A stretch of DNA of 64,000 nt. It comes from Candidatus Atribacteria bacterium (GTDB lineage Bacteria > Atribacterota > Atribacteria > Atribacterales > JASGLU01). This document shows positions 10,890 through 58,742 of the stretch, piece by piece; within the stretch, counting starts at the first letter, position 1, and each line of letters starts with the position of its first letter. Position numbers and translations under genes: made by a program. The notes under the pieces were generated by a model that saw only the letters and a program-made list of their open reading frames with translations, was not told the DNA's origin and made no database searches. The stretch spans positions 2,556 to 66,555 of the forward strand of contig JASGLU010000001.1 in the NCBI GenBank assembly GCA_030156825.1. Reading direction: 5' to 3'.

Positions 10890-11167
10890 AAATGAGTTTA
10901 TACTTTGGTTGTCATTCTTCCGCCGGTGCTTTTGTGGCCAACAGCGGAGGCTGAGTTTGTACTGATTGCTTGCCAGAGATGTTTGTTGTTGTTCTGATTC
11001 AACCGTGGGACTTTAGAGCTGTAAAAGGAAAATGTGATAAAGAAAGACCTGACCCCCAAATTTTTGGTTGAAAAATAAAAAATTTTGTAGGGAACCCATA
11101 AAGTTTTTAAAAAATATTCCGATATATTATAATAGTATTTAGTTGGTTTGATTTTCTATTTTAATCA

Positions 11168-11255
11168 TTTTCAAGGGCAAACTCTCCGAAAGGAGAGGAC
11201 GCAAAGCCACGAGCCTAAAGCAGGTTCTGCTAAGGCAGTCGGGTTGCCGGATCTC
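11168..11255 (+). promoter_or_regulatory. c-di-GMP-I (GEMM-I) riboswitch aptamer
   Basis: AGGGCAAAC, TCTCC-GAAA-GGAGA hairpin, GGACGCAAAGCC, CCTAAAG, AGCAG-GTT-CTGCT hairpin, GGCAGTCGGGTTGCC. This matches the remembered Vibrio cholerae Vc2 aptamer element by element. A TATAAT box lies at 11128-11133 upstream. Confidence 0.85.
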
Positions 11256-11338
11256 AACGGTTGAGATTCGTTAAGCAATAACTTTTGGCGCGTCACTCTC
11301 GATATTCCTTCGGAGAAGCCCTGAAGGAGGTACGAGAG

Positions 11339-12004
11339 ATGAAGCGCTGGTCTTTCTTCCTTACCATCTTCGGGCTTATCCTGATTATTCTGGTTTCCGG
11401 ATGCAGTAATTCTATAAATACTCCGGAAACCGGTTTTGACATTTCCTCTTCTCCCACCGCTGGTGGAACACTGGATAAGTTCATTGAGCTTTCTGATAAC
11501 AAAATCCTTCTTGATGTACCTTTTCTTCCTCAGGTTCCACCTGGTGATTGGGTAAATACCCGTAATTGTGGGCCTACCTGTGCGGTGATGATGCGGGCTT
11601 ACTATTTTGACATTCAACCCTTCCCTGACCATATCATTCAAGCCAATAACTGGCTTAATGCTCGTTTTGGCCTCCCGATTAACGGTTATAATGGTGACTG
11701 GACCAATATTTTTCAGATTCGTGCCTGGCTGGACAGCGAAGATGTGCCAACTAAAGTAGGGATGGGAAATCTGGAACGAGCTCAGGCTATGCTTTCTGAA
11801 GGTAAACCTTTTCTGGTGGCAGTTTATTCTAACATGAACCCCAGTGGCGGTGCTAAGCATGCTATGCTGGTAGTTGGTATCGACTCTAACAATATCTATG
11901 TCAATGACCCGGGTAAAGTTGCAGGAGCCAACAACTCTTATCCCATTTCTCAATTTCTTTCTGCCTGGGGCGCTCAGGGAAATTGGTATTTAGCTTTGGA
12001 CTAA
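11339..12004 (+). CDS. Peptidase C39-like (papain-fold cysteine peptidase) lipoprotein
   Basis: ATG 11339 lies 8 nt after GAAGGAGG. Signal peptide with lipobox LVSGC. Catalytic-type motifs NCGPTCAVMM (Cys), AKHAMLVVG (His) and YVNDP (Asp). Confidence 0.75.
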   Translation: MKRWSFFLTIFGLILIILVSGCSNSINTPETGFDISSSPTAGGTLDKFIELSDNKILLDVPFLPQVPPGDWVNTRNCGPTCAVMMRAYYFDIQPFPDHIIQANNWLNARFGLPINGYNGDWTNIFQIRAWLDSEDVPTKVGMGNLERAQAMLSEGKPFLVAVYSNMNPSGGAKHAMLVVGIDSNNIYVNDPGKVAGANNSYPISQFLSAWGAQGNWYLALD

Positions 12005-12204: not shown

Positions 12205-12323
12205 CGTTGTTCCCGAAATTTAGCTGGGAATTCATCCTCTTCTACCATGTCTGTAATCTTTAATTAGGCATCTAGATACTTTTAAAACCATAAGCCCCTA
12301 ATAAAACCATTCAGGGGTGATAG
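12205..12323. repeat. Two members of the dispersed hairpin-repeat family
   Basis: CGTTGTTCCCGAAATTTAGCTGGGAATTC (12205-12237) and GCCCCTAATAAAACCATTCAGGGGTGATAG (12293-12323). Close relatives occur at 15799-15825 and 15676-15707. Confidence 0.7.
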
Positions 12324-12390
12324 AAGAAGAGATAATGGATTATTCTTCCTATAGTGACTGTCTTACAAAATAGGAGTAGTAGCTACCAAA

Positions 12391-12479: not shown

Positions 12480-15254
12480 ATGAACCACAAAAATCTTTTT
12501 TTACTGGTGGCCATTATAACTTGTTCTTTGGCTTTAATGGCTGGTTGTGTGAGTTCCCCTCAATTTGGTGCTCCAGAAACAACTGGTGCGACAATAACTG
12601 GCCGGGTGGCAACTCCAGAGAGCTGCTTTACTGGTGCCTGTGATAACCCATCTATAACTGATGGTAAACCTCTTCCTTTAGCTACAGCTCTCTTTTATGG
12701 AGGAGATAGCGGGCAGCTAAAAATCCAAGGTGAAACTGAGTGTGACGGATCTTTCGGAGTAAGTGCAGGCGGCGAAGGAAGCTACGTTCTCTATACAGTA
12801 AGAGAATACCCAGAGGGTTCTGGTAAATATGTGGTGGTTAAAAAAGGCATCAACGGCTCCTCTGGTGATGTGGGTGAAGCTAACGCATATACTACTTCTC
12901 AGGTAATTATCTGGGAACGTGCCAACGCTCTTTATGGAGAAGGTTTTACTCCTTTTGATGCTTCCTGGTATGCTCAATATAATTGGGGATGGAGCTTTGA
13001 CCCCGCTAAATTAGTTCTTCCAGTGAGCGATATTCCTAACCTCCAACCCACTGCTCAGCTTTTGGCTGCAGTAGAGAAGGCTCTATCTGAATGCCGTGAC
13101 CCGCAGGGAGATGGAGATGTAATATATTATGCTGAAGCAATTGCTAAAACCCAATTCGGTGCTCCTGGCGGTGGTGGAGGTACTACTGGAGGCGGAGGAA
13201 CTACAATCATTGTTGTCCCAACTCCCACTACAGGTCCCACTTCTGCACCAACAACACTTTACAAAATAACTGGCACAGTATATGTTAAAAGCGAAGAAGG
13301 CGCAGCAGTGCCCTATGATAATTCTAAAGGAGCTATTGGATTACGATTAGTTAAAAAGGCCGATAGTAGTAAAATTGAAGATACTTTTACTGAAAACGAC
13401 GGAACATTTGAATTTTCACCAGTTCCTGCTGGTGAGTATGTAATTAAAATTATTTCTGCCCCCGAAGGCTACGATGTAACTGCTCTTCCTAAGTCTAAAG
13501 CTGTGACTAAAGCGACATCGGATGCTAATATTGAAGTGGTTATTGTTAACGCCGATAGTGTAGGGAACAATTTTCTATTGGAAAAGGCCAGTCCAAAAAC
13601 TCATTTTGTTGATGGCTATGTATTTGAAGATCAGAATAACAACGGGGCTTATAATGATGGCGAGGGAATAGCAGGAATCGAGGTTAAGTTGAACGTTGTC
13701 AGCAACACAAAGGTTTCTATTGAGTGGAACAAGACAACCGATGAAAATGGGTATTACAAATTTGTAGGGCTTGAAGATGGGGTTGAGTATAGAGTTAGGC
13801 CAATAATTGCAAATACTTCGTATGGAGATGCGACCCCAAATAACTATCAATTTACTATTAATGGGTCGAATTTAAGAGATAAAAATTTCCAACTTAAAAG
13901 AGTTCCCGCAGAACAGACCTATTGTATAAGTGGTTATACTTATGAGAATGGGACTACTAGCCCAGTACAAAATGTCACCGTTAAGTTGCTTGATCACACT
14001 ACTGGCTCTTTAATAGCTAATACCACGTCCGATACTAATGGTTTATACCAGTTCTGTAACTTGTCGGATAAGAAAACATATCGAATCAGGGCAGAAATAC
14101 CATCAGGATATACTAATGTCGATCCAAATAGACGAGTTATACTAATCAATGGTGCAAACGTTATTGATGCCTCTTTTTGGTTTGTGAAAGCCTCTGCGCC
14201 AGTTTATACTCTCACCGGTATTGTGTATGCATCAGATGAAACTTGCGATACTCCATGTGGTGATTGCGATCAAGTAATATCCAAATCTCTTCAAACTGTG
14301 GCAGGTGTTAAAGTTGTTCTGAAAAAATACAATACCTCAACTAACAGCTGGGACAAAGTAAATGAAGTGACAACAGATGGGGATGGAGTTTACACTTTTG
14401 TTAACAACAGCGCCGGAAAATATCGAATAGTCGTTCCAGTGCCACAGAGTGATTATCCATATGTCACTCCCGAAAAATATGAAATTGATATTGTCACTCT
14501 GATAGGTAGGAATCTTGATTTTACTCTGAGCTGCTGTCAAGATAATCCCTGCTGTGAGGTGCCTAAAATCAGGAAACTCACTTTACAAGATGGATGTTCT
14601 GATCCAGTTCCATCGTCTTTTAATGGTATAAATATTGACTTTGAAGGACTTCCTGGAATAAGTGGAATGGGAAATTTGAATGGTGTTCTTTGCCCATCTT
14701 GTAGCCGTGACTATTGTTTGTGTTGGATTATGGGTGATTTGGAGATGAAACAAGGAAATAATCTGGAATATAAATTCGAAGCATTTTTCATTCCTGCAAG
14801 TGGACTTCAATTTGGACCATTCACTATTGGTTCAGAAATGAATAAAGATTTCTTATTGAAAAATATACCGATTAAATCTGGAGAAAGTCTTACAGTTATG
14901 ATTAAGGCAACAGCTTCTAATAGTTGCGGAAGCGATTTTACCACTGAACAAATTGTTCTTAATTGCCAAGGAGAAGAGCCGGGAATTGGATGTTTATTAG
15001 TAAAAGTTTCTAACCCACAAGGTGAAGGTTTTGGAGCTGGTTGGGTAAAATTGCATAATGACAGCCATACATTTGGACCATATAATACAGACAGAAATGG
15101 ATATTATACGTTTACAAATATACCTGTAGGAACTTATACACTTGAAGCGGGTGTAAAAGGACATCATAATTGGACAAGGCCCTCAAAAACTGTAGAAATT
15201 ACGGGAGGAGGAACCACTTGCCAAGAAGAATCGTTGCAATACACAAAAAAATAA
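12480..15254 (+). CDS. Large surface lipoprotein/adhesin with SdrD-B/Cna-B-like (carboxypeptidase-regulatory-like) repeats
   Basis: Lipobox LMAGC and RBS GGAGG. Gly/Thr/Pro hinge GAPGGGGGTTGGGGTTIIVVPTPTTGPTSAPTT. At least five ~100-aa repeats ending in DxNGxYxF motifs (e.g. DGYVFEDQNNNGAYNDGEGIAGIEVKL...TDENGYYKF). A Cys-rich module lies near the C-terminus. Confidence 0.8.
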   Translation: MNHKNLFLLVAIITCSLALMAGCVSSPQFGAPETTGATITGRVATPESCFTGACDNPSITDGKPLPLATALFYGGDSGQLKIQGETECDGSFGVSAGGEGSYVLYTVREYPEGSGKYVVVKKGINGSSGDVGEANAYTTSQVIIWERANALYGEGFTPFDASWYAQYNWGWSFDPAKLVLPVSDIPNLQPTAQLLAAVEKALSECRDPQGDGDVIYYAEAIAKTQFGAPGGGGGTTGGGGTTIIVVPTPTTGPTSAPTTLYKITGTVYVKSEEGAAVPYDNSKGAIGLRLVKKADSSKIEDTFTENDGTFEFSPVPAGEYVIKIISAPEGYDVTALPKSKAVTKATSDANIEVVIVNADSVGNNFLLEKASPKTHFVDGYVFEDQNNNGAYNDGEGIAGIEVKLNVVSNTKVSIEWNKTTDENGYYKFVGLEDGVEYRVRPIIANTSYGDATPNNYQFTINGSNLRDKNFQLKRVPAEQTYCISGYTYENGTTSPVQNVTVKLLDHTTGSLIANTTSDTNGLYQFCNLSDKKTYRIRAEIPSGYTNVDPNRRVILINGANVIDASFWFVKASAPVYTLTGIVYASDETCDTPCGDCDQVISKSLQTVAGVKVVLKKYNTSTNSWDKVNEVTTDGDGVYTFVNNSAGKYRIVVPVPQSDYPYVTPEKYEIDIVTLIGRNLDFTLSCCQDNPCCEVPKIRKLTLQDGCSDPVPSSFNGINIDFEGLPGISGMGNLNGVLCPSCSRDYCLCWIMGDLEMKQGNNLEYKFEAFFIPASGLQFGPFTIGSEMNKDFLLKNIPIKSGESLTVMIKATASNSCGSDFTTEQIVLNCQGEEPGIGCLLVKVSNPQGEGFGAGWVKLHNDSHTFGPYNTDRNGYYTFTNIPVGTYTLEAGVKGHHNWTRPSKTVEITGGGTTCQEESLQYTKK

Positions 15255-15675: not shown

Positions 15676-16125
15676 GGACCCCTGATAAATACATTCAGGG
15701 GTGACGGATATAAGGGTGATAGAGACATTCAGGAATGATAGACTCGAGGAGATTTCACCCTAACCCTAATTCTTTTCCCTCAAGGGCTTCCCGCTTCTGT
15801 CGTTCCTAAATTTAGCTGGGAATCCAGACGAGCTTAAATACTTTTGGATCCCGGCTTAAAGATTGCCGGGATGACGGATGAGGAGGGTCGTTGCGATAAC
15901 AAGAAAAAAGGAGTTTATAAGGGGGGAAACGTTCCCCCTTATACTGAGGGACGCTTTTCCCCTCAGTAGTTCTTGTCTTTTATTCTATCTTTAAATTTTT
16001 GTTTTTAGTGCCGTAGGCTGTTCTGTTTTGTTTACGCCGTAGGCACGCTGGAGTGTTGTTCTCCAGCGTAGTTTTGTCCGAATCCTTTTTAATCTAATTT
16101 GCTTTTTGTTTACGCCGTAGGCTGT
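15676..16125. repeat. Cluster of hairpin repeats and CGCCGTAGGC/T-rich modules
   Basis: Hairpins at 15676-15707, 15799-15825, 15846-15877, 15917-15942, 15943-15967 and 16046-16068. (A/T)CGCCGTAGGC motifs near 16010, 16033 and 16110. Homologous modules occur at 23431-23545 and, inverted, at 31650-31665. Confidence 0.75.
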
Positions 16126-16132
16126 TCTTTTC

Positions 16133-16141
16133 TGCTATAAT
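16133..16141 (+). promoter_or_regulatory. Extended -10 promoter element (TGCTATAAT) for the kinase/regulator operon
   Basis: TGnTATAAT match ~45 nt upstream of start codon 16187. No good -35 element. Confidence 0.35.
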
Positions 16142-23172: not shown

Positions 23173-23403
23173 AGGATAGACCCCCATGCTGCTTCGGGGC
23201 ACCAGATAACAATGAAAACAGAATTCAATATAATCTTAGAGAAATAATAGTGGTCTATCCTTTCAGGTTTTCGTTTTTTAAGTCTTTGCCTTTTATTTTT
23301 TAAGTTTTTAGGGGGTTTAAGGGGGGCGAAGCCCCCATTATTGCCGTTTACAGGATAGACCCCCATGCCTCTTCGGGGCACCAGATGACAATGAAAACAG
23401 AAC
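23173..23403. repeat. ~190-bp repeat, copy B plus a partial tandem second unit
   Basis: 23173-23359 is the inverted partner of 20201-20418. 23353-23403 repeats the first ~50 nt (GGATAGACCCCCATGC..GGGGCACCAGAT.ACAATGAAAACAGAA). Confidence 0.85.
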
Positions 23404-23430: not shown

Positions 23431-23636
23431 CATCCGTCATTCCCGAAATCCTTAATCGGGAATCCACTGAGGGAGGCTTTTTCTCCCTCAGTAATCTTTT
23501 GCATTTTCTGTTTTTCTTTTAGTCTTTTACTCTTACGCCGTAGGCTATTTTTCTTTCCTCAGTATGGTCTTTTTACGTTTTTTGATTTTTAAATGTTTTT
23601 AGTTTTTCGGGGGGTTATAGGGGGCGCTCCCCCTAT
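23431..23636. repeat. Hairpin-repeat cluster
   Basis: CATCCGTCATTCCCGAAATCCTTAATCGGGAATCC (23431-23465), ACTGAGGGAGGCTTTTTCTCCCTCAGT (23466-23492), ACGCCGTAGGC (23535-23545), ATAGGGGGCGCTCCCCCTAT (23617-23636). Same modules as 15846-16125. Confidence 0.75.
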
Positions 23637-31570: not shown

Positions 31571-31645
31571 TTGACCACCTCCCAAGCTAAAGTTTTTGGG
31601 TGAGACGTTATCTACCATAGGGGGCATGCCGCCTATTGCCCCCAA

Positions 31646-32211
31646 AAGACAAAAACAGCCTACGGCGCAAGATTAAAAACAAAAGATAAAGGGCAAAGAC
31701 TAACTGACGGGAAAGGTACCCCTCAGCACCCATGGTGTAAATTTAACCACATAAAAGACTTAAAGACAAATAACAACTGAGGGGGAAAAGCACCTTCATC
31801 AATAAAAGGGGAGACCCTCTTTCTTTTTTGTCACCCCGGCAAGCTTTAAAATACCATGGACCCCTGATAGAGACATTCAGGGGTGACAGAGGAGAGTAGA
31901 TTCCCGATAGAAACATTCGGGAATGACGGAGAAGAGGGTTACTTTTGGACAACGCCTGACAAATTCTGCAGAGGGTCGCTGACAGAGACATTCAGGAATA
32001 ACAGAAGCGGCGACAGAAGAGGATCACCCCGGTAATTACCCCCTATTTGTCACCCCGGCAATTGCCCTTCTTCTGTCACCCCGGCAATCTTTAAGCCGGG
32101 GTCCACCATATCTTAAATTTAAGAAAGGACAAAACTACTTGGATGCCTGATTAAAGATTTCAGGCATGACGGGGAGAGTGGATTCCCGATAGAAACATTC
32201 GGGAATGACAG
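31646..32211. repeat. Densest cluster of the hairpin-repeat family
   Basis: Units at 31858-31889, 31898-31929, 31978-32004 (degenerate), 32075-32104, 32141-32172 and 32180-32211. The 29-mer GATTCCCGATAGAAACATTCGGGAATGAC is exactly duplicated. Four GTCACCCCGG(C/T)AA half-sites; inverted CGCCGTAGGCTGTTT at 31650-31665. Confidence 0.85.
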
Positions 32212-32303
32212 AATAGCCCCTCTGAGTTTTTATATTCATATGGCGCCCCACGGATACGAGGATTCCTCCTTTTGCAGGGACTAAATTTAAGGGAAACGAC
32301 TGA

Positions 32304-38222: not shown

Positions 38223-40421
38223 ATGAAACATTCGAGAACTTTTTCCATCAATTTGATCGTAGCGGTTTGTTTGGCATTTGTTTTAGTCTTTACTTTTGCC
38301 AATGTGTCAGCTTTCGCCCAAAGCTTTCAACGAATTGCTTCCTTTTCTACAGCGTTAAACATTCCCTCATCGATGGATATAAACAGTGAATCATCGGCTG
38401 AAATTATTACGGTTACACCGGATGCTTCCATGCTTATTTATTCTGATAGCCCTCTGGGTGGTATTGGTATGATCGATATCAGTGATCCTAAAAATCCTCA
38501 ACCTGCCGGTTTTATTAAGATGGGTGGTGAACCAACCTCAGTTGCGATGACCGGCAATAATATCCTGGTTGCTGTAAATACTTCAGAAGACTATATTCAT
38601 CCTTCCGGTTATCTTTCTGTTGTTTCAGCTTCGGAAAAAAAGGAAATTGAACGATTCGACTTAAATGGACAACCGGATAGTATTGCAGTTTCTCCAGACG
38701 GTCGTTTTGTGGCTATCGCCATTGAAAATGAACGTGATGAGGATTTCAACGATGGTATCATTCCCCAATTACCTGCTGGTAATCTCACCCTTTTTGCCAT
38801 CGAAAATGATCTTCCAGTGCGCTCTAGTAAAAAAATAGTTGATCTTACTGGTTTAGCTGAAATTGCTCCCACTGACCCAGAACCCGAATTTGTTGATTTT
38901 AATAGCAATAACCAAGTTGTTGTTACCTTACAGGAAAACAACCATATAGCGATTATTGATGCTGAAACTGGTGAGATTACTTCTCATTTCTCCGCCGGTA
39001 GTGTTGATCTAGTTGGCTTAGACAATAGGGAAGAAGGAGCCTTGATCTTTGAGGCTAGTCAAAAAAATAGACGTCGTGAACCGGATGCGGCTAAATGGTT
39101 AGACAATGAACGTTTTGTCACCGCCAACGAAGGTGACTACCAGGGTGGTTCTCGCGGGTTTACTATTTTCAATACCCAAGGGGATGTCCTTTACGAATCC
39201 GGTTTAGCTTTCGAATATGCCTGTGCTCGAGCTGGTCATTATCCGGAAAAACGTTCTGAAGATAAAGGAATTGAACCAGAAGGATTAGAAGTTGCTTCGT
39301 TTAATGGTGAAACCTATATCTTTGTTTTATCTGAGCGAGCTTCCATTATTGGAGTTTACAAAGATACCGGTTTAGCACCGGAGTTCGTTCAGCTATTACC
39401 TTCCGGCATATCTCCGGAATCGGCAGTAAAAATTCCCGGGACCAACCTGTTGGCCAGTGCTAATGAATCTGATTTAGGACCAGAGGGTGGGGTTCGTTCC
39501 CACGTTATGATTTACGAGTTAACCTCTGATGAAGCAACTTACCCCCAGATTGAATCGGCCATGATTGATGGGAAGCCGATCGGTTGGGGGGCTTTATCCG
39601 GTTTAGCTGTCCATCCTTTCCTACCAGGTATGCTTTATGCCGTTAGCGATTCCTTCTACTCCTTACAACCCACCATCTTTCATATCGATGCCAGTTATAC
39701 CCCAGCCCGTATTGTAGATGTAACCCGGGTAAACCGGAGTGGCTATCCTGCCCAAAAATTAGACCTGGAAGGTATCACCAGCGACGGTGAAGACGGATTT
39801 TACCTGGCTTCTGAAGGGAGACCAGATCGTTTAATCCCTCACGCGATTTATCATGTGGATGCCAAGGGAACTATTCAGGAGGAAATACCCTTCCCGCAAG
39901 AGCTACTTGAGGTATCAGAACAATGGGCCGCAGAAGGTATTACCATGATTGATAATACACTTTGGATCGCCATTCAAAGGCAGTGGAAAGATGATCCTGA
40001 AAACACAGTTCGTTTAGTCGCTTATAATTTGGAAACAGGGGAGTGGGGCGCGGTTCGTTATCCCACTGAATCGATCGAAAGCGGTTGGGTTGGACTTTCC
40101 GAAATAACTGCTTTTGGAGATTTTGTCTATATCATTGAACGTGATAATCAAATTGGCGACAAGGCTAAAATCAAACGTTTATACCGTGTGCCTACTACTG
40201 AATTACAGCCTGCCGGATTAAGTGGAGATCTTCCAGTGGTTAATAAAGAGCTCGTCCATGACTTTATTCCCGATTTACTATCAACTCATGGATTTGTTGT
40301 TGATAAAATTGAAGGGTTTGCCGTTGATGCTGCTGGACAGGGTTTTGCAGTTACTGACAATGATGGTGTCGATGATAGTTCTGGTGAAACCTATTTCTTT
40401 ACAGTTGATATTACTCGGTGA
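38223..40421 (+). CDS. Secreted beta-propeller protein (choice-of-anchor-I-like N-terminal half, phytase-like esterase C-terminal half)
   Basis: Signal peptide ending ANVSAFAQS, RBS GGAAAGGAGAG. Repeated propeller-like blades. Family call from remembered sequence patterns only. Confidence 0.5.
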   Translation: MKHSRTFSINLIVAVCLAFVLVFTFANVSAFAQSFQRIASFSTALNIPSSMDINSESSAEIITVTPDASMLIYSDSPLGGIGMIDISDPKNPQPAGFIKMGGEPTSVAMTGNNILVAVNTSEDYIHPSGYLSVVSASEKKEIERFDLNGQPDSIAVSPDGRFVAIAIENERDEDFNDGIIPQLPAGNLTLFAIENDLPVRSSKKIVDLTGLAEIAPTDPEPEFVDFNSNNQVVVTLQENNHIAIIDAETGEITSHFSAGSVDLVGLDNREEGALIFEASQKNRRREPDAAKWLDNERFVTANEGDYQGGSRGFTIFNTQGDVLYESGLAFEYACARAGHYPEKRSEDKGIEPEGLEVASFNGETYIFVLSERASIIGVYKDTGLAPEFVQLLPSGISPESAVKIPGTNLLASANESDLGPEGGVRSHVMIYELTSDEATYPQIESAMIDGKPIGWGALSGLAVHPFLPGMLYAVSDSFYSLQPTIFHIDASYTPARIVDVTRVNRSGYPAQKLDLEGITSDGEDGFYLASEGRPDRLIPHAIYHVDAKGTIQEEIPFPQELLEVSEQWAAEGITMIDNTLWIAIQRQWKDDPENTVRLVAYNLETGEWGAVRYPTESIESGWVGLSEITAFGDFVYIIERDNQIGDKAKIKRLYRVPTTELQPAGLSGDLPVVNKELVHDFIPDLLSTHGFVVDKIEGFAVDAAGQGFAVTDNDGVDDSSGETYFFTVDITR

Positions 40422-40443
40422 TTTAGGCGGGGGAATAACCAGC

Positions 40444-40477
40444 AAAACTGGTGGTAGCGCTCGCTACCACCAGTTTT
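40444..40477 (+). terminator. Strong rho-independent terminator
   Basis: AAAACTGGTGGTAGCG/CGCTACCACCAGTTTT near-perfect 16-nt arms followed by TTTTCT, 23 nt after the stop at 40421. Confidence 0.8.
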
Positions 40478-40556
40478 CTCCACCATCCATTTCTGAATTG
40501 GGAAAATTCTTGGGAAAATTCAAACCGCAAAAAATGGTTCCTTTACTTCTTCTTCC

Positions 40557-40609
40557 GTCACCCCGGGCAATCCCCTTCTGCCACCCTGGCAAACTTCAAG
40601 CCGGGGCCT
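40557..40609. repeat. Hairpin-repeat family members (GTCACCCCGGGCAA half-site and GCCACCCTGGCAAACTTCAAGCCGGGGCC)
   Basis: Variant of GTCACCCCGGCAATCTTTAAGCCGGGGTCC at 32075-32104. Confidence 0.6.
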
Positions 40610-40650
40610 ACCGTCTTTCAAAATCTTACCTCTGCCCTAGGCCAGGCACT

Positions 40651-40845
40651 AATTTTGATCCCCAAGTGGTAGCCAATGAAGACTTGCTTGATTATTGTCA
40701 GGTGCAAGATATGACTCTTTTGGCTTATTCTCCTCTTTTAGGAGGGGCTTATACCCAAGAAACTAAATCTATTCCCGAGGAATACCGGGGGCAAGATGCC
40801 GAGGTTCGTTTATCTACTTTGAAACAATTGGCCAAGAAAAGAGAG
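40651..40845 (+). pseudogene. Aldo/keto reductase gene remnant (internal ~65 codons only)
   Basis: Translation DLLDYCQVQDMTLLAYSPLLGGAYT...LSTLKQLAKK matches the conserved AKR C-terminal third. No N-terminal two-thirds. Homology stops where the IS21-like end begins. Confidence 0.55.
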
Positions 40846-40952
40846 CTATGTCACAGCCGACATATAATTGACCCAGGAAAGCCGGAATAAAAATGACCCA
40901 CCCCTTAAAGGTATAATCCCTCTGATAGGATGAAAAGATCGGAGGGAAATAC

Positions 40953-42035
40953 ATGCTAAGGAGTGAGTCAATTATGATGTTACACCAGATGAGAAAAGAA
41001 GGAAAGAGTATAAGAAGAATAAGTCGAGAAACTGGACTTTCTCGGAATACGGTGAAATCTTATCTCAAGGCTCAAGCTATTCCAGAGAGAAAAGCCAGGA
41101 AAAAGAAGGGTTCAAAACTGGACCCCTTCCAGAAAGAGATTCAAGAGATGATGAAACTGGGGATATTCAACTGTGAGGTGATCTACCCTAGGCTAAAAGA
41201 GCTCGGTTACCAGGGAGGGAAAACTACGGTTAAAGATTATGTTCAACCTTATCGTCCTCCTCGAGGAATAGTGGCTACCCAAAGATATGAGACAGAACCA
41301 GGTAAACAAGTCCAAGTGGATTGGGGGATTGGCTTTTATCAAGACCAGAAAGATGGAAGTTGTCATAAAGTCTATGTGCTGGTGATGGTTTTAGGCTATT
41401 CCCGAGCAATATATGCGGAGTTCAGCAACCACTGCAATATCCATAGTTTCCTACGGGGTCTCACCCAGGGGTTTTCCTACTTCGGAGGGGTAACCGATAT
41501 CGTTCTATCCGATCAGATGAAAACCGTTATCTTGGGTTGGGATGAGAAACGAAAGCCGATTTGGCATCCTTTGTTTTTGGATGTAGCTCTCACTTTGGGT
41601 TTTATCCCCCAGGTTTGTCGAGCCAGGAGACCACAAACCAAAGGAAAAGTTGAACGAGGGGTAGGGTACGTGAAAGCCAATTTTTTACCTGGCAGGAAGT
41701 TTCAAGATCGAGGAGATTTAAATCGGGAAGTCTATCAGTGGTGTGAGGAGAAAAATCAACGCCTTCATGGAACGACTGGCCAAAAACCCAAGGAGCTTTT
41801 GCTTCAAGAAAACTTGAAACCTCTTCCTTCTCCAGAAAGCTATCAAAAGTATCTCACTGAAAAAAGAAAAGTGAGTAAAGATGGGTTTTTAAGTTACCAA
41901 GGAGTGAGGTATGGAGTTCCTTGGATTTATAGTGGTCAAGAGCTTTGGGTCAGAGAAGGAAAAGAAGGGATCGAGATTGTCAAAGATCCGCTGCATATGG
42001 TGAGAATTGATGATGAGAGGAATCATGCTGAATGA
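40953..42035 (+). pseudogene. istA: IS21-family transposase IstA, C-terminally truncated
   Basis: N-terminal HTH SIRRISRETGLSRNTVKSYLK and DDE region with PGKQVQVDWG. The family-like sequence ends near residue ~345 and no IstB follows. Confidence 0.7.
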
Positions 42036-43818: not shown

Positions 43819-44775
43819 ATGTTTAATAAAAAAAGTATAATAATTTCTTTTTTGGTGATGTTACTTTTCTTACTTAGTAGCCTTCCCACTTTTTCTCAAG
43901 AACGTCCCAAAGTAGCCGTTGTAGCCATTACTTCCACTGCTCCAGGCTACTCCTGGCGAAGTGATTCCCCCTTATCAATTGCTGCTACTGATTTGATGAT
44001 CAATGCCCTGGTCAATAGTAATCGTTTTCGGTTATTTGAAAGAGCAAAATTAGAGGCAATTATGCAGGAACAAAATTTTCAACATTTTTCAGGTATGGTT
44101 GATCAGTCTACTGCCGTACAGTTAGGCAAAATGATTGGAGTGGGGACAATCGTAACAGGGACTGTTACCAATGTCAGTGTCAGTTCGGGTAGTGGATTTC
44201 AGATTGGCCCTGTAAAGGTACGAAAAAGGTCAGCTAAAGTAAGCATGACTATCAGATTTATTGATGTAACTACCGGAGAGATCCTTTATTCGGCCTCTGA
44301 AAGTTGCAAAGACTCTGCTTCTTCTGTTTCAACTAGATTACCTGTAGCTATTCCCGGAGGAGTCGGATTTTCCGAGGAATCAGCTGCTGATATTTTAACA
44401 GCAATTGAAGAGATCTGTAATAATGTCGTGACATCTTTCATCGAAAAGATGGATGAAAATATTGCCCGAATTGAGGCTGCTCCTCTGGAAGGCTATGTTG
44501 TGCAGGTTAGGTCTACTTCTTCAGGTAATATTACCCAAGTATATATTAATCTGGGAGAGAGCTCAACTATCAAAGTAGGGGACGAGGTCAGGATTTACCG
44601 AGAAGGAGATGTTATCCGAGATCCCAAGACCAATGAAATATTGGATAGGGAGTTAATAGTCATTGCTACGGGGACGGTAAGAGTGGTTAAAGAGAAGTTA
44701 TCAGAGGTCATGATTACCGAAAAGTTTAGCAGTAGGGAAATCAGACAAGAAGATATTGTACAAGTGGTGCGATAA
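43819..44775 (+). CDS. CsgG-like secreted protein, second paralog, with C-terminal beta-rich domain
   Basis: Signal peptide ending TFSQ-E. Core KVAVVAI...RFRLFERAKLEAIMQEQ...QLGKMIGVGTIVTGTV. The C-terminal GYVVQV...VGDEVRIY...ATGTVRVV resembles FlgT-C/OB-like barrels. Confidence 0.6.
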   Translation: MFNKKSIIISFLVMLLFLLSSLPTFSQERPKVAVVAITSTAPGYSWRSDSPLSIAATDLMINALVNSNRFRLFERAKLEAIMQEQNFQHFSGMVDQSTAVQLGKMIGVGTIVTGTVTNVSVSSGSGFQIGPVKVRKRSAKVSMTIRFIDVTTGEILYSASESCKDSASSVSTRLPVAIPGGVGFSEESAADILTAIEEICNNVVTSFIEKMDENIARIEAAPLEGYVVQVRSTSSGNITQVYINLGESSTIKVGDEVRIYREGDVIRDPKTNEILDRELIVIATGTVRVVKEKLSEVMITEKFSSREIRQEDIVQVVR

Positions 44776-44900
44776 GCAATTAATTAAAAAGTTATAGAAA
44801 CAGAATGCATATTTCGGCCGCACCCGGACACTGATTCCGGCAACATCCGGACACCTTGTCGAATGATTAAAAAATCAGGTACCCTTGGTTGTTAACCCTA

Positions 44901-44948
44901 AATTTGGCCTCTAGCACAAGAAAATATACTTATGTTAGAGGCCAAATT
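44901..44948. terminator. Bidirectional hairpin between convergent genes
   Basis: Perfect 13-bp stem AATTTGGCCTCTA/TAGAGGCCAAATT with a 22-nt loop, A/T-rich on both sides. Confidence 0.6.
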
Positions 44949-44994
44949 AAATACGTTTTAAAATTTAACATAATATACATTATGGGAACTAAAA

Positions 44995-46293
44995 CTATTT
45001 GCTTAAAATCCTTTGCAGGTGTTCAACTTTTTCTTTTCTTACCGCACATTCTATTTTAACCCGGCCTTCCTCTTTGGCTTCTAAATCTTTAATGTAACCA
45101 TAACGTGGGATCTCTTTTTCTATTTTTCCTAATTCTGACCAGCTGACTTCGAAGGAAAGTTTTTGAATTTGATTCTGTAATCGATAAGAGATCAAACTCA
45201 AAAGTTTTTCTATTCCTTTTTCTTTTTGAGCCGAGATAAACACGTGATCGTTTTCTCGAATTTCTTTTTCTAATCTTGGTAAATCTGAAAGTAAATCAAC
45301 TTTGTTTAAAACCACGATTTTAGAAAACTGGTCGAGGCCTATTTCGGAAAGAGTTTGGTTTATAGTTTGAAAATGGGAAAAGTAATCAGGGTGCGAAACA
45401 TCCAGTATCTCCAAAATTAAATCGGCCTCTTTGGTTTCTTCTAAAGTAGCCCAAAAAGCTTCTTTAATGGTAGGAGGCATTTCTCGGATGAAGCCTACAG
45501 TATCAGTAAAAACGGTTTCCCCAACTTCCGGGAGAAAAGCTCGACGGGTAACTGGATCTAAGGTGGCAAAAAACTGATCTTTTACGTAAACTTTGGCTCC
45601 GGTTATAGCATTTAACAAAGTTGATTTTCCAGCGTTGGTATAGCCAACGATAGCCACCACCGGAACTTTCCTTGCTTTTCTAAGCGATTTCTGAACTTCT
45701 TTTTGTTTTTGAATGCGTTCAATTTCATGATTTAAGAAGGTAATTCGTTTTTGTACTTTTCGCCGGTCTTTTTCTAATCTTTGCTCTCCTGGGCCTCTGG
45801 TGCCAATTCCCCCACCCGTTCGAGAAAATTGCTTCCCCCTTCCAGTCAATCGGCTCAATTGATATTGAAGCTGAGCTAATTCCACTCGGATTTTTCCTTC
45901 GGCTGTGCAAGCCCTCAAAGCAAAAATTTGATGAATAATAGCATTTTTGGTATAAATTGGCATTTCCCAGTAGTCTTCTAAATTGCGTTGTTGAGAGGGA
46001 GAAACTTCAAAATCTATCAAAATACAGTCAATTTCTGGATGATCGTCAATATAATTTTTAATTTCTTTAACTTTACCTTTTCCTAAAAAATATCGGGAAA
46101 AAGGATTTCGAACCGAATATTCCCAACAAGTTGTTATTTGAAAACCAACGGTTCGAGCAATAGAAATAAACTCTTCTTTTTCAGAGTCAAGCGAAATAAA
46201 GGTTTGAGCACCTTTTTCGGTCTCAAAGTTAACCACCAACCCCAACGCTTTCCGCTTTGCCTGAAAGCTTTTAACCATTCTTTTCTTTATCAA
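44995..46293 (-). CDS. hflX: GTPase HflX
   Basis: HflX N-terminal domain and G-domain motifs GYTNAGKSTLLNAIT, DTVGF, NKVD. Confidence 0.9.
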   Translation of the reverse strand: MIKKRMVKSFQAKRKALGLVVNFETEKGAQTFISLDSEKEEFISIARTVGFQITTCWEYSVRNPFSRYFLGKGKVKEIKNYIDDHPEIDCILIDFEVSPSQQRNLEDYWEMPIYTKNAIIHQIFALRACTAEGKIRVELAQLQYQLSRLTGRGKQFSRTGGGIGTRGPGEQRLEKDRRKVQKRITFLNHEIERIQKQKEVQKSLRKARKVPVVAIVGYTNAGKSTLLNAITGAKVYVKDQFFATLDPVTRRAFLPEVGETVFTDTVGFIREMPPTIKEAFWATLEETKEADLILEILDVSHPDYFSHFQTINQTLSEIGLDQFSKIVVLNKVDLLSDLPRLEKEIRENDHVFISAQKEKGIEKLLSLISYRLQNQIQKLSFEVSWSELGKIEKEIPRYGYIKDLEAKEEGRVKIECAVRKEKVEHLQRILSK

Positions 46294-57812: not shown

Positions 57813-58742
57813 TCAGTTCTCCTTTCTTCCAGCTCGAGGATGGGTCTGGTCATAAACTGCTTTCATTTTTTTCCAATCAATATGGGTGTAAATTTGAGTG
57901 GTGGAAAGGCTTGAGTGACCTAATGCTTCTTGAACAGTTCGCAAATCGGCCCCACCCATTAAAAAATGAGTAGCGAAACTATGACGGAAAGTATGAGGGG
58001 AAACTTTTTTATGGGTAAAACCCATCCGTTTTAACAGAGTATCTAAAATTTTTCTCACCCCACGTGTCCCTAAAGCTTCGCCCCGGTTATTTAAAAATAG
58101 CTTTGAAGAAGAAGTGAAATTTTCTCGAAAAAGCAAATAATTTTCTAAGTATTCCTGAACTTTAGGAGCAAAAGGGACTACCCTTTCTTTCCCTCCTTTT
58201 CCTTTTACTCGAACCAGTCTCTGGGTTAAGTCTATACTGTCTAACTCCAACTGAGTTATTTCCCCCACCCTCAGCCCACTGGCATAAAGCAGTCCAAATA
58301 AAGCTCGATTACGAGCAGTAAGGAACTTAGGGGAATTTTCCCACTCTTTTTGCAATTTTTCTAAAATAGATTTAATTTCCTCTTCAGTTAAAAAGTCCGG
58401 TAGTTTTTTTTCTATCGAAATAGTTCCTATTTGATCGGTGGGATTTTGGTCAATTATTCCCCTTCGACGGAGGAAGCGAAAAAAAGAACGAAGAGCTGAT
58501 GCCCGGTTAGCCTGAGAAACCCGCTTCAAATTGTGATGAGTTTTCAACCAAGCCATAAAAGAACCGACCTCTTGCGAAGAAATTTGTGTAATAGACAAGT
58601 TTTTCTTTTGTAAAAATTGAGTTAACGCTTCCAGAGTAAAACGATAATTATCAATCGTATGTTGGGAATAACGTTTTTCTTTTTCCAAATAATCTAAAAA
58701 TAGATTTACCAAATTACTATTTTCCCGATAAACTGATTTCAA
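57813..58742 (-). CDS. xerC: Tyrosine recombinase XerC/CodV-like
   Basis: Catalytic residues in ASGLRVGE, HTFRHSFATH, LGHSSLSTTQIYTH. Conserved xerC-hslV-hslU context. Confidence 0.85.
   Translation of the reverse strand: MKSVYRENSNLVNLFLDYLEKEKRYSQHTIDNYRFTLEALTQFLQKKNLSITQISSQEVGSFMAWLKTHHNLKRVSQANRASALRSFFRFLRRRGIIDQNPTDQIGTISIEKKLPDFLTEEEIKSILEKLQKEWENSPKFLTARNRALFGLLYASGLRVGEITQLELDSIDLTQRLVRVKGKGGKERVVPFAPKVQEYLENYLLFRENFTSSSKLFLNNRGEALGTRGVRKILDTLLKRMGFTHKKVSPHTFRHSFATHFLMGGADLRTVQEALGHSSLSTTQIYTHIDWKKMKAVYDQTHPRAGRKEN

Follow-up and report, generated by a model that had tools for sequence, protein, structure and literature searches.

Long-loop REP-type hairpins of the CGTC/TGTC-tagged superfamily in intergenic gaps of an Atribacterota genome, with relatives in other bacteria and in tailed phages

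Among the repetitive extragenic palindromes (REPs) of bacteria, a class tagged by the tetranucleotide CGTC was described in 2013 (Di Nocera, De Gregorio, Rocco 2013, BMC Genomics 14:522, PMC3733652), with units made of a CGTC head, often TGTC, a stem of 8-9 bp starting with an A-T pair, a loop of 4-5 nucleotides (nt) and a CCA tail. These repeats were reported from 5 phyla as families CGTC-1 to CGTC-4, the first of them being the dRS3 element of Neisseria; they are extragenic, mostly arranged as head-to-head dimers, with tail-to-tail dimers and clusters being rare, and have no associated transposase (PMC3733652). The same work included CCTC among the head variants, noted exceptions in loop length for Bradyrhizobium, K. 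olearia and M. prima, and argued that many REPs are transcribed (PMC3733652). As for what moves them, the Neisseria ATTCCCGCGCAGGCGGGAATC repeat (dRS3, that is CGTC-1) was treated by Bertels and colleagues as the REPIN of a Group-2 RAYT (bioRxiv 10.1101/2021.07.10.451892), and no follow-up work on the mover of CGTC REPs beyond this proposal was found in the searchable literature. In this work we describe a family of hairpin repeats in a stretch of 64,000 nt from a Candidatus Atribacteria bacterium (contig JASGLU010000001.1; the whole stretch is called the window from here on). The units of the window belong to the CGTC/TGTC-tagged superfamily as non-coding DNA hairpins of the REP type with a long loop, and what is new relative to the superfamily of 2013 is the long loop, another preferred pairing, the Atribacterota host and a wider spread that includes phages. 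No report of such repeats in Atribacterota was found in the literature, where searches with the unit sequence strings returned primer matches only.

Eight intact units are present in the window, each of them composed of T-GGA, a 7-nt arm, a 9-nt A-rich loop, the complementary arm and TGAC followed by a purine, together with about nine further units that are degenerate or reduced to halves. Searching the frame GGA-N23-TGACRG without any demand for pairing gave 8 matches against 0.49 expected, a number reached in 0 of 100 shuffles, and 7 of the 8 matches held a perfect hairpin; a match at 15033, inside a gene, was discarded as a chance one, and a copy with AGA in place of GGA (31898) was added as a ninth from a plain hairpin scan. 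The stem is of 8 bp, since a further pair forms between the A of GGA and the T of TGAC, and its first pair is A-T in all eight units, the second being T-A in five and C-G in three, with a loop of 9 nt throughout (8/8). Read on the other strand, the unit runs from a [C/T]GTC head through a stem of 8 bp, A-T first, and the loop to a (T)CCA tail, where window heads are CGTC (5/8) or TGTC (3/8), tails are TCCA (7/8) or TCTA (1/8), and a purine-rich tract comes after the head. The fold of each unit as single-stranded DNA is exactly this hairpin, with energies from -6.9 to -10 kcal/mol. Moreover, a covariance model built from the eight copies (R1, run with filters off) recovered them at E values of ~1e-13 to 1e-14 and added degenerate copies at 40576-40612(-), 12289-12325(+), 31970-32006(+), 15795-15828(-) and 12240-12276(-). 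A sequence-only reading of this DNA had advanced a dispersed hairpin family with this frame, five pairs of arms and a few loop types. Such a family is real, the arm pairs and all the loop types listed are present as it gave them, and every block in which it had placed copies holds family members, in both orientations. Its statement that the family fills most intergenic gaps was, on the other hand, too strong: all window units are intergenic and lie within 5 gaps, out of 18 that measure 60 nt or more; counting just those above 500 nt, 5 out of 7 are occupied.

The arms of the hairpin change together. In the eight window copies all 64 of 64 stem cells pair, both sides change at 4 of the 8 pairs, and the covariation score of 0.598 compares with 0.174 for shuffled alignments, none of 500 shuffles reaching it; pairing broke down once the 3′ partner was slid by one column or further, a shift of one column leaving 41-61%. 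As a fair test of pairing, candidates were also picked by their flanks only, with the arm used in the search excluded, and their paired arm positions turned out to be bimodal, with 41 candidates at 7/7, nine at 6/7 and one at 5/7, over a background at 0-4. In this flank-chosen subset compensated changes outnumbered one-sided changes by 72 to 11, as counts of changes in copies of which many share ancestry, so that they are not independent events. This bears out the earlier proposal that the stem rather than the sequence is conserved, for which a lack of excess of compensatory over single-arm substitutions had been named as a refutation. Over all loci, most of which were chosen because they match a perfect hairpin exactly, 20 arm types occur, and in every one the two arms are fully complementary. 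Where a single mismatch occurs it is mostly a transition, and neither strand is favoured (C.A/A.C 12 vs T.G/G.T 9), which argues against tolerance of G-U pairs in an RNA made from one strand. Arm-to-arm correction within the palindrome could also give covariation without selection on each change.

The likeness of these units to the CGTC superfamily comprises the unpaired CGTC/TGTC head, the 8-bp stem with A-T first and the CCA tail, as well as an extragenic location, multiple copies, arms that vary in complementary pairs and no transposase gene alongside. They differ in the loop, which is of 9 nt and A-rich here (11 nt in some units) instead of 4-5 nt, in the dominance of tail-to-tail pairs in the related loci as against the published head-to-head dimers, with direct pairs and clusters in the window, and in their hosts, which add Atribacterota, many candidate phyla and tailed phages to the 5 published phyla. 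With the dRS3 and NIME repeats of Neisseria they share the head, the stem core and the tail (GTCATTCCCG...CGGGAATCC), the organization in mosaic intergenic arrays with other short repeats, and the inverted pairs. The dRS3 element is ATTCCC-N8-GGGAAT, in agreement with the quoted 21-mer, whereas the spacing in the window is ATTCCC-N13-GGGAAT (ATTCCCGA, the 9-nt loop and TCGGGAAT); furthermore, no cognate RAYT was found here, and the companion modules described below are unrelated to the Neisseria RS elements. The REPs and bacterial interspersed mosaic elements (BIMEs) of E. coli and the REPINs of Pseudomonas are likewise short extragenic hairpins with an unpaired tetranucleotide tag, found in inverted pairs and clusters and with a proposed single-strand mechanism, but their tag is GTAG instead of CGTC/TGTC, the Y and Z types of E. 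coli alternate with defined inter-REP motifs, and no RAYT flanked by units of the window type was found. The REP/BIME likeness that had been proposed for the window thus holds as regards a REP-type hairpin family, whereas its precise relative is the CGTC-tagged superfamily and not the GTAG REP/BIME of the E. coli type. In REPIN-RAYT systems (Bertels & Rainey), two inverted REPs stand a short spacer apart, and the REP also flanks a cognate single-copy RAYT gene, which encodes a Y1 HUH transposase. In comparison with them, inverted pairs are common in other genomes, while the window holds one intact (32073/32141) and direct pairs dominate there. A behaviour like that of terminal inverted repeats is also seen, as the arms and their GGA/TGAC flanks bracket from 4 to ~165 nt, but no target-site duplication and no parent insertion sequence with matching ends were seen, and the minimal unit is of ~30 nt. 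CRISPR, integron attC sites, terminators and small genes were rejected as identities of the units. No unit is terminator-like in consensus scans or followed by a T-run, and the only window match to Rfam at gathering score is a c-di-GMP-I riboswitch, with none on the units. A cyanobacterial origin was also discarded, the HIP1 sequence (GCGATCGC) being absent.

The family extends well beyond the window. The pattern GGATTCCCGA-N9-TCGGGAATGAC has 20 fixed bases, for which ~1 chance match would be expected in 596 Gb by our own arithmetic, and it matched at least 119 stretches of species-representative genomes. By record title, the matches listed belong to at least ~20 phylum-level groups, a list that binning errors in metagenome-assembled genomes (MAGs) may inflate, and among them are Nitrospirota, Ignavibacteria, Omnitrophota, Elusimicrobiota, Zixibacteria, Calditrichia, Bacteroidota, Dadabacteria, Desulfobulbaceae and other Thermodesulfobacteriota, Nitrospinota, Spirochaetia, Planctomycetales, KSB1, Atribacteria, and Gamma- and Betaproteobacteria, with three isolates among the matches listed (Colwellia sp. 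TT2012, Vreelandella venusta and Iodobacter sp. BJB302). A second pattern, made from the arm and loop types of the window, matches metagenomes too among the matches listed, and with the phage contigs considered below these results show that the family is not confined to the window, which had been raised at the outset as a possible refutation. In 145 distinct copies found elsewhere, T stands before the GGA in 97% and a purine after the TGAC in 92%, with a loop of the form T-W-A-A-A-R-M-N-T, so that head, tail and loop composition are conserved on one strand. The loci fetched for the long-loop form hold 388 units with a 9-nt loop, mostly selected by the two search patterns, and also perfect units with the same flanks and loops of 4 nt (n=54), 5 nt (n=25) and 11 nt (n=12), the short-loop units providing a direct link to the classical CGTC families. 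One short-loop example, TGGATTCCCGCCTTCGCGGGAATGACG / GGATTCCCGCCTTCGCGGGAATGAC, translates to WIPAFAGMT. A remark that translated units give WIPA..GMT-like peptides therefore suits these short-loop relatives, whereas the window units themselves read WIPDRNIRE* or GFPIETFGNDR.

The arrangement of the units in other genomes follows a recognizable pattern. Outside stop-to-stop open reading frames (ORFs), which cover 83% of the locus DNA, lie 334 of 410 units (81%), and among 464 units, neighbours no more than 150 nt apart form 107 tail-to-tail pairs, whose spacer has its mode at 16 nt, as well as 30 direct and 27 head-to-head ones. Tail-to-tail pairs are commonly heterodimers, in which a unit with a TTCCCG[A/C] arm is joined to one with a CCCCCGA arm through a semi-conserved spacer, an architecture that is REPIN-like but with non-identical halves. 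On a Nitrospirales chromosome (OZ251550.1; locus L029, 1-1300) a unit of 206 nt is repeated six times in tandem, each repeat holding a tail-to-tail pair (TACCCGA-arm and TTCCCGA-arm), two half units and ~90 nt of other sequence.

Units borne by phages give a closer view of how the family behaves. The long-loop pattern matches 22 stretches of IMG/VR contigs, several of which are genuine tailed phages with genes for small and large terminase, portal, major head, tail tube and tape-measure proteins. Phage contigs (L258, L259, L266, L257/L264/L254/L270, L260 and L271) have between 4 and 19 CGTC-type units each, which share a single strand, and over the 7 independent phage contigs with at least 4 units these are co-oriented by 59 to 1. 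In the annotated phages the GGA..TGAC strand is the sense strand and the units lie between cistrons, where loops of 4, 5 and 9 nt occur side by side and some are expanded to ~42-165 nt. Three phages (L258, L259 and L266) share genes at 85-94% identity, and the gap after their portal gene holds 0, 4 and 1 canonical units, respectively; at the last position of that gap, where the flanks correspond, the sequence enclosed by the arms measures 9 nt in L259, ~104 nt in L258 and ~42 nt in L266. These differences are direct evidence of unit turnover. In this regard, a variable insert between the arms means that arms and flanks behave like short terminal repeats. Two indels between the phage contigs L260 and L270 were also inspected, and proved to be in coding sequence and unrelated to the units. 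No transposase family was found among the 64 ORFs of the phage loci, no RAYT in any viral locus, and no match to a 35-nt unit among the deposited phage genomes of INPHARED.

Taking this evidence together, the units are probably non-autonomous hairpin elements of the REP type, on one strand of which an enzyme acts in trans, recognising head, tail and stem. What the elements are and how they behave was observed directly in the copies described, and it is the enzyme, and any movement within this genome, that we infer. Like other REPs, the unit would be processed as a single-stranded hairpin without encoding its own mover, and a trans-acting enzyme would recognise the head, the tail and the geometry of the stem to cut, copy or reshuffle units. 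Only those copies that fold would stay competent, and arms would for this reason drift in complementary pairs only, whereas aberrant processing would leave behind half units and tandem arrays. The units cluster with lineage-specific modules and enlarge in this way a handful of intergenic gaps, and secondary effects on neighbouring transcripts are possible. Within this framework, a more specific proposal, which we make tentatively and regard as rather doubtful, would consider the 9-nt-loop units as a distinct fifth family of CGTC REPs, present in bacteria (at least ~20 phylum-level groups) as tail-to-tail heterodimers of ~76 nt and in phages as co-oriented inter-cistron arrays that accept loop inserts of 40-165 nt, with a RAYT-independent and strand-specific propagation and possibly carried by phages between hosts.

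A number of results weigh against handling by a trans-acting enzyme. The search for RAYT was done by phmmer with E. coli RayT and with a two-sequence profile on the ORFs of the window, of ~1.7 Mb of loci and then of the phage loci. In agreement with the sequence-only reading, no Y1/RAYT gene was found in the window by phmmer, profile or Pfam scans; neither was any RAYT, or any other transposase that recurs, found beside a unit in ~1.9 Mb of fetched DNA including the phage loci, although a RAYT elsewhere in these genomes remains conceivable, because RAYTs are single-copy and only 8-kb pieces were sampled. The sole RAYT in the 1.7 Mb (locus L134, 350-901; E 1e-49 against E. coli RayT) has GTAG REPs on both sides (GTAGGGTGCGC..GCGCACC; GTAGGGTGCGCTTGCGCACC) and forms with them a textbook REPtron at 100-1000 of that locus, the CGTC unit of the same contig being 12 kb off. 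An all-against-all clustering of the ORFs flanking the units showed no recurrent transposase, only common housekeeping families (ABC ATPases, kinases and sigma-54 activators) being recurrent, and neither a target-site duplication nor a defined insertion site was seen. To these must be added the orientation of the units with respect to neighbouring genes, balanced at 78 to 77 in bacterial and metagenome loci, and the way in which loci were ascertained, since the match to a perfect hairpin leaves the flank-chosen subset as the only fair one for pairing. The distribution in the phylum is patchy, other Atribacterota DNA (L243-L247, ~70 kb) having no unit, and no movement is visible in the lineage, where the contig of a 98% relative (L243) begins 22 nt before the flanking gene, that of an 85% relative (L248) ends ~170 nt before the first unit, and other homologues are not syntenic. 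That the contigs of relatives end near the clusters suggests that repeat clusters break short-read assemblies. On the other hand, the missing enzyme agrees with the statement of 2013 that CGTC REPs have no dedicated transposase (PMC3733652).

Several alternatives have to be considered besides handling by an enzyme in trans. The units might have been selected by the host as structural elements, acting in the protection of transcript 3′ ends, in processing or in attenuation between cistrons, or as DNA sites for a host protein, with the stem kept by selection for that role, and their position between genes fits this idea, as do the location of phage units on the sense strand between cistrons, often tens of nt past a stop codon and before the next ribosome-binding site, the conservation of loop composition on one strand and the case made by Di Nocera et al. 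for the transcription of many REPs. Such a role is nevertheless unlikely as the main explanation, for bacterial and metagenome units face co-directional neighbours in both senses equally (the 78 to 77 given above), in the minus-strand gap 31646-32303 of the window most units lie antisense, none of the units is terminator-like or followed by a T-run, mismatches lack the strand bias of G-U type (12 vs 9), unit number and position vary between close phage relatives, and half units and their tandem arrays have no obvious structural role.

It might also be thought that the units mainly serve other mobile elements as landing sites, their abundance being kept or exploited in that way, as precedents exist in dRS3 of Neisseria for filamentous prophages and in REPs for insertion sequences of the IS1111/IS110 family. 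The match of head, stem and tail with dRS3 (CGTC-1), the foreign segments of ~42-165 nt within the loops of phage units whose arms stay intact, and an rve-family transposase gene ~340 nt from the degenerate units at 40557-40612 would all be in line with it. This explanation is quite improbable all the same: it accounts for the use of the units but not for their origin or spread, the insertion sequence of the window is not inside a unit, and no IS110-type or integrase gene is recurrent near units. As to an artefact, in the form of chance palindromes, low complexity or short real genes for peptides of the WIP..ND type, certain reading frames cross the units without a stop, and databases contain annotated peptides of this kind. 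The excess of frame matches (8 against 0.49), the presence of units in both orientations, a covariation that preserves pairing and not codons, a frame that stops inside the unit and the recurrence of the frame in many phyla with varied loops reduce the probability of this last explanation to almost nothing, and the artefact or small-gene reading is effectively refuted by the shuffle count, the covariation and the compensation test.

The copies of the window are distributed as follows. A first gap holds only degenerate units: one of the AAATTTAGC-loop type on the minus strand at 12205..12237, with a 3′ arm short by one base, which was read by eye and lies below the reach of the model at E<=10; a weak one, also on the minus strand, at 12240..12276 (model 10.5 bits, E 0.93); and a plus-strand unit at 12289..12325 (GCCCCTAATAAAACCATTCAGGGGTGATAG; 20.1 bits, E 9e-4), tail-to-tail with the weak one at 12240. 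The intact plus-strand unit at 15676..15707, GGA-CCCCTGA-TAAATACAT-TCAGGGG-TGACGG (model 53.8 bits; DNA fold -7.5 kcal/mol), is followed on the same strand at 15713..15740 by a decayed direct partner (GGGTGATAGAGACATTCAGGAATGATAG) which has lost its 5′ arm and belongs to repeat family D3, being 82% identical to the copy at 15683-15704. Downstream, a degenerate minus-strand unit of the AAATTTAGC-loop type at 15795..15828 (12.5 bits, E 0.22) stands tail-to-tail with the intact plus-strand unit at 15846..15877, GGA-TCCCGGC-TTAAAGATT-GCCGGGA-TGACGG (53.4 bits; -9.0 kcal/mol). A single intact unit, GGA-TTCCCGA-TTAAGGATT-TCGGGAA-TGACGG, is located at 23434..23465 on the minus strand (54.8 bits, and fold).

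The richest cluster begins with a minus-strand half unit at 31826..31849 (repeat family D2), made of head, 5′ arm and loop (GTCACCCCGGCAAGCTTTAA) without a 3′ arm. There follows a direct pair on the plus strand, GGA-CCCCTGA-TAGAGACAT-TCAGGGG-TGACAG at 31858..31889 (frame, hairpin scan, model and fold) and, after a purine-rich spacer of 8 nt, AGA-TTCCCGA-TAGAAACAT-TCGGGAA-TGACGG at 31898..31929 (52 bits, and fold), and then a degenerate plus-strand unit (GGGTCGCTGACAGAGACATTCAGGAATAACAG) at 31970..32006 (13 bits, E 0.15; repeat family D1). On the minus strand, two reiterated half units at 32024..32075 (TCACCCCGG[T/C]AAT and then a C/T-rich filler; repeat family D4) show a period of 26 nt and abut the intact unit at 32073..32104, GGA-CCCCGGC-TTAAAGATT-GCCGGGG-TGACAG (model; inverted pair I1; -10 kcal/mol), a layout that is also found in the Nitrospirales locus mentioned above (L029). 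The unit at 32073 is tail-to-tail, across a 36-nt spacer, with the plus-strand one at 32141..32172, GGA-TGCCTGA-TTAAAGATT-TCAGGCA-TGACGG (frame, hairpin scan, model and fold), which is in turn the first of a second direct pair, completed after a purine-rich spacer of 7 nt by GGA-TTCCCGA-TAGAAACAT-TCGGGAA-TGACAG at 32180..32211 (plus strand; 54 bits, and fold). In the last gap, a half unit at 40557-40580 and a degenerate unit at 40576-40612 (24.9 bits, E 2.7e-5) occupy 40557..40612 on the minus strand, adjoining a truncated aldo/keto-reductase remnant identified by Pfam. The half units of the window, at 31826-31849, 32024-32075 (two) and 40557-40580, consist in general of the head, the 5′ arm and the first bases of the loop. 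Direct pairs and clusters prevail in the window (31858 with 31898, 32141 with 32180, and 15676 with its decayed partner at 15713), where the tail-to-tail pairs are one intact (32073/32141) and two decayed.

The units travel with other palindromes and T-rich modules, as had been pointed out before. The sequence GCCGTAGGC occurs exactly 5 times in the window, always within repeat-bearing gaps, and a second repeat of ~100 nt, which comprises a CTGAGGG..CCCTCAG hairpin, a T-rich stretch and a CGCCGTAGGCTGTT box (as aligned; the box is also given as CTTACGCCGTAGGCTGTT), is located at 15943-16134, 23467-23560 and 31646-31745(-) of the window and at 560-650 of an Atribacteria MAG locus (L065). Hairpins of G5/C5 with ATA/TAT feet make up a third type of module. 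In the plus-strand stretch 15917..16134 a G5/C5 hairpin (15917-15942) precedes the CTGAGGG..CCCTCAG hairpin (15943-15967) and T-rich stretches with GCCGTAGGC at 16010, 16036 and 16114, whereas at 23467..23560, also on the plus strand, a CTGAGGGAG..CTCCCTCAG hairpin, a T-rich stretch and a CGCCGTAGGC box abut the 23434 unit. The modules are reversed at 31617..31800 (minus strand), with a G5/C5 palindrome (31617-31643), a GCCTACGGCG box at 31658, imperfect hairpins of the CTGAGGG type and a minus-strand T-rich tail. All three module types are found together in L065, so that the mosaic is a feature of the lineage and not of the window alone. The mosaic further includes, with no relation to the hairpins described above, a direct repeat of 51 nt at 23173-23223 and 23352-23402, whose copies are 94% identical and 179 nt apart (AGGATAGACCCCCATGC..TTCGGGGCACCAGAT.ACAATGAAAACAGAA).

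As regards the genes of the window, its HslU is 73-75% identical to proteins of Candidatus Caldatribacterium, the next named matches being Atribacterota, exact copies of the window proteins were found in Logan assemblies only, and other genes encode an ABC transporter, sugar enzymes, HydF, Mrp/Mbh-type antiporter subunits and an rpsB-tsf-pyrH-frr block. The only transposase gene is that of the rve/Mu-transposase-C family at 40953-42035, with a C-terminal remnant of the aldo/keto reductase (~40640-40890) between it and the degenerate units, and the region 40222-42035 looks like a rearranged spot. The c-di-GMP-I riboswitch (11166-11251, plus strand; 88 bits against a gathering score of 35) is directly upstream of a gene with a Peptidase_C39_2 domain (11285-12004), after which comes a surface protein of 924 aa with SdrD/SpaA repeats (12480-15254). 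Downstream of the latter, the non-coding segment 15385-15510 is conserved with the contig of the 85% relative (L248) about as much as coding DNA and has no match in Rfam; a leader, a small RNA and a small gene are possible readings of it. The sign of the GC skew flips at ~44000-46000, with a cumulative peak near 45 kb, and genes converge from the plus strand, up to ~18 kb, and from the minus strand, from 45 kb. The zone of ~44000-46000 looks in this respect like a replication terminus, and the minus-strand block is nonetheless a housekeeping one (rpsB, tsf, pyrH, frr, dxr, ispG, proS). A gene for a XerC/D-type recombinase at 57813-58742 was assigned by synteny with L247.

CGTC REPs are among the most widespread short repeats of bacteria, and their mover is known only as a proposed link with a RAYT in Neisseria. 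The window places these repeats in Atribacterota, a candidate phylum known mainly from metagenomes, where recognising the units improves the annotation of MAGs, because their clusters yield spurious small ORFs. To the specialist the presence of REPs in Atribacterota will be unsurprising; the handles gained are a 30-nt frame common to many phyla, a tail-to-tail heterodimer with a fixed spacer, and one-strand phage arrays that turn over between relatives, and through the phage arrays and the heterodimer the question of the mover becomes somewhat more approachable. If the 9-nt-loop units were truly a fifth family, finding its mechanism would answer the question, posed by the work of 2013, of what moves CGTC REPs.

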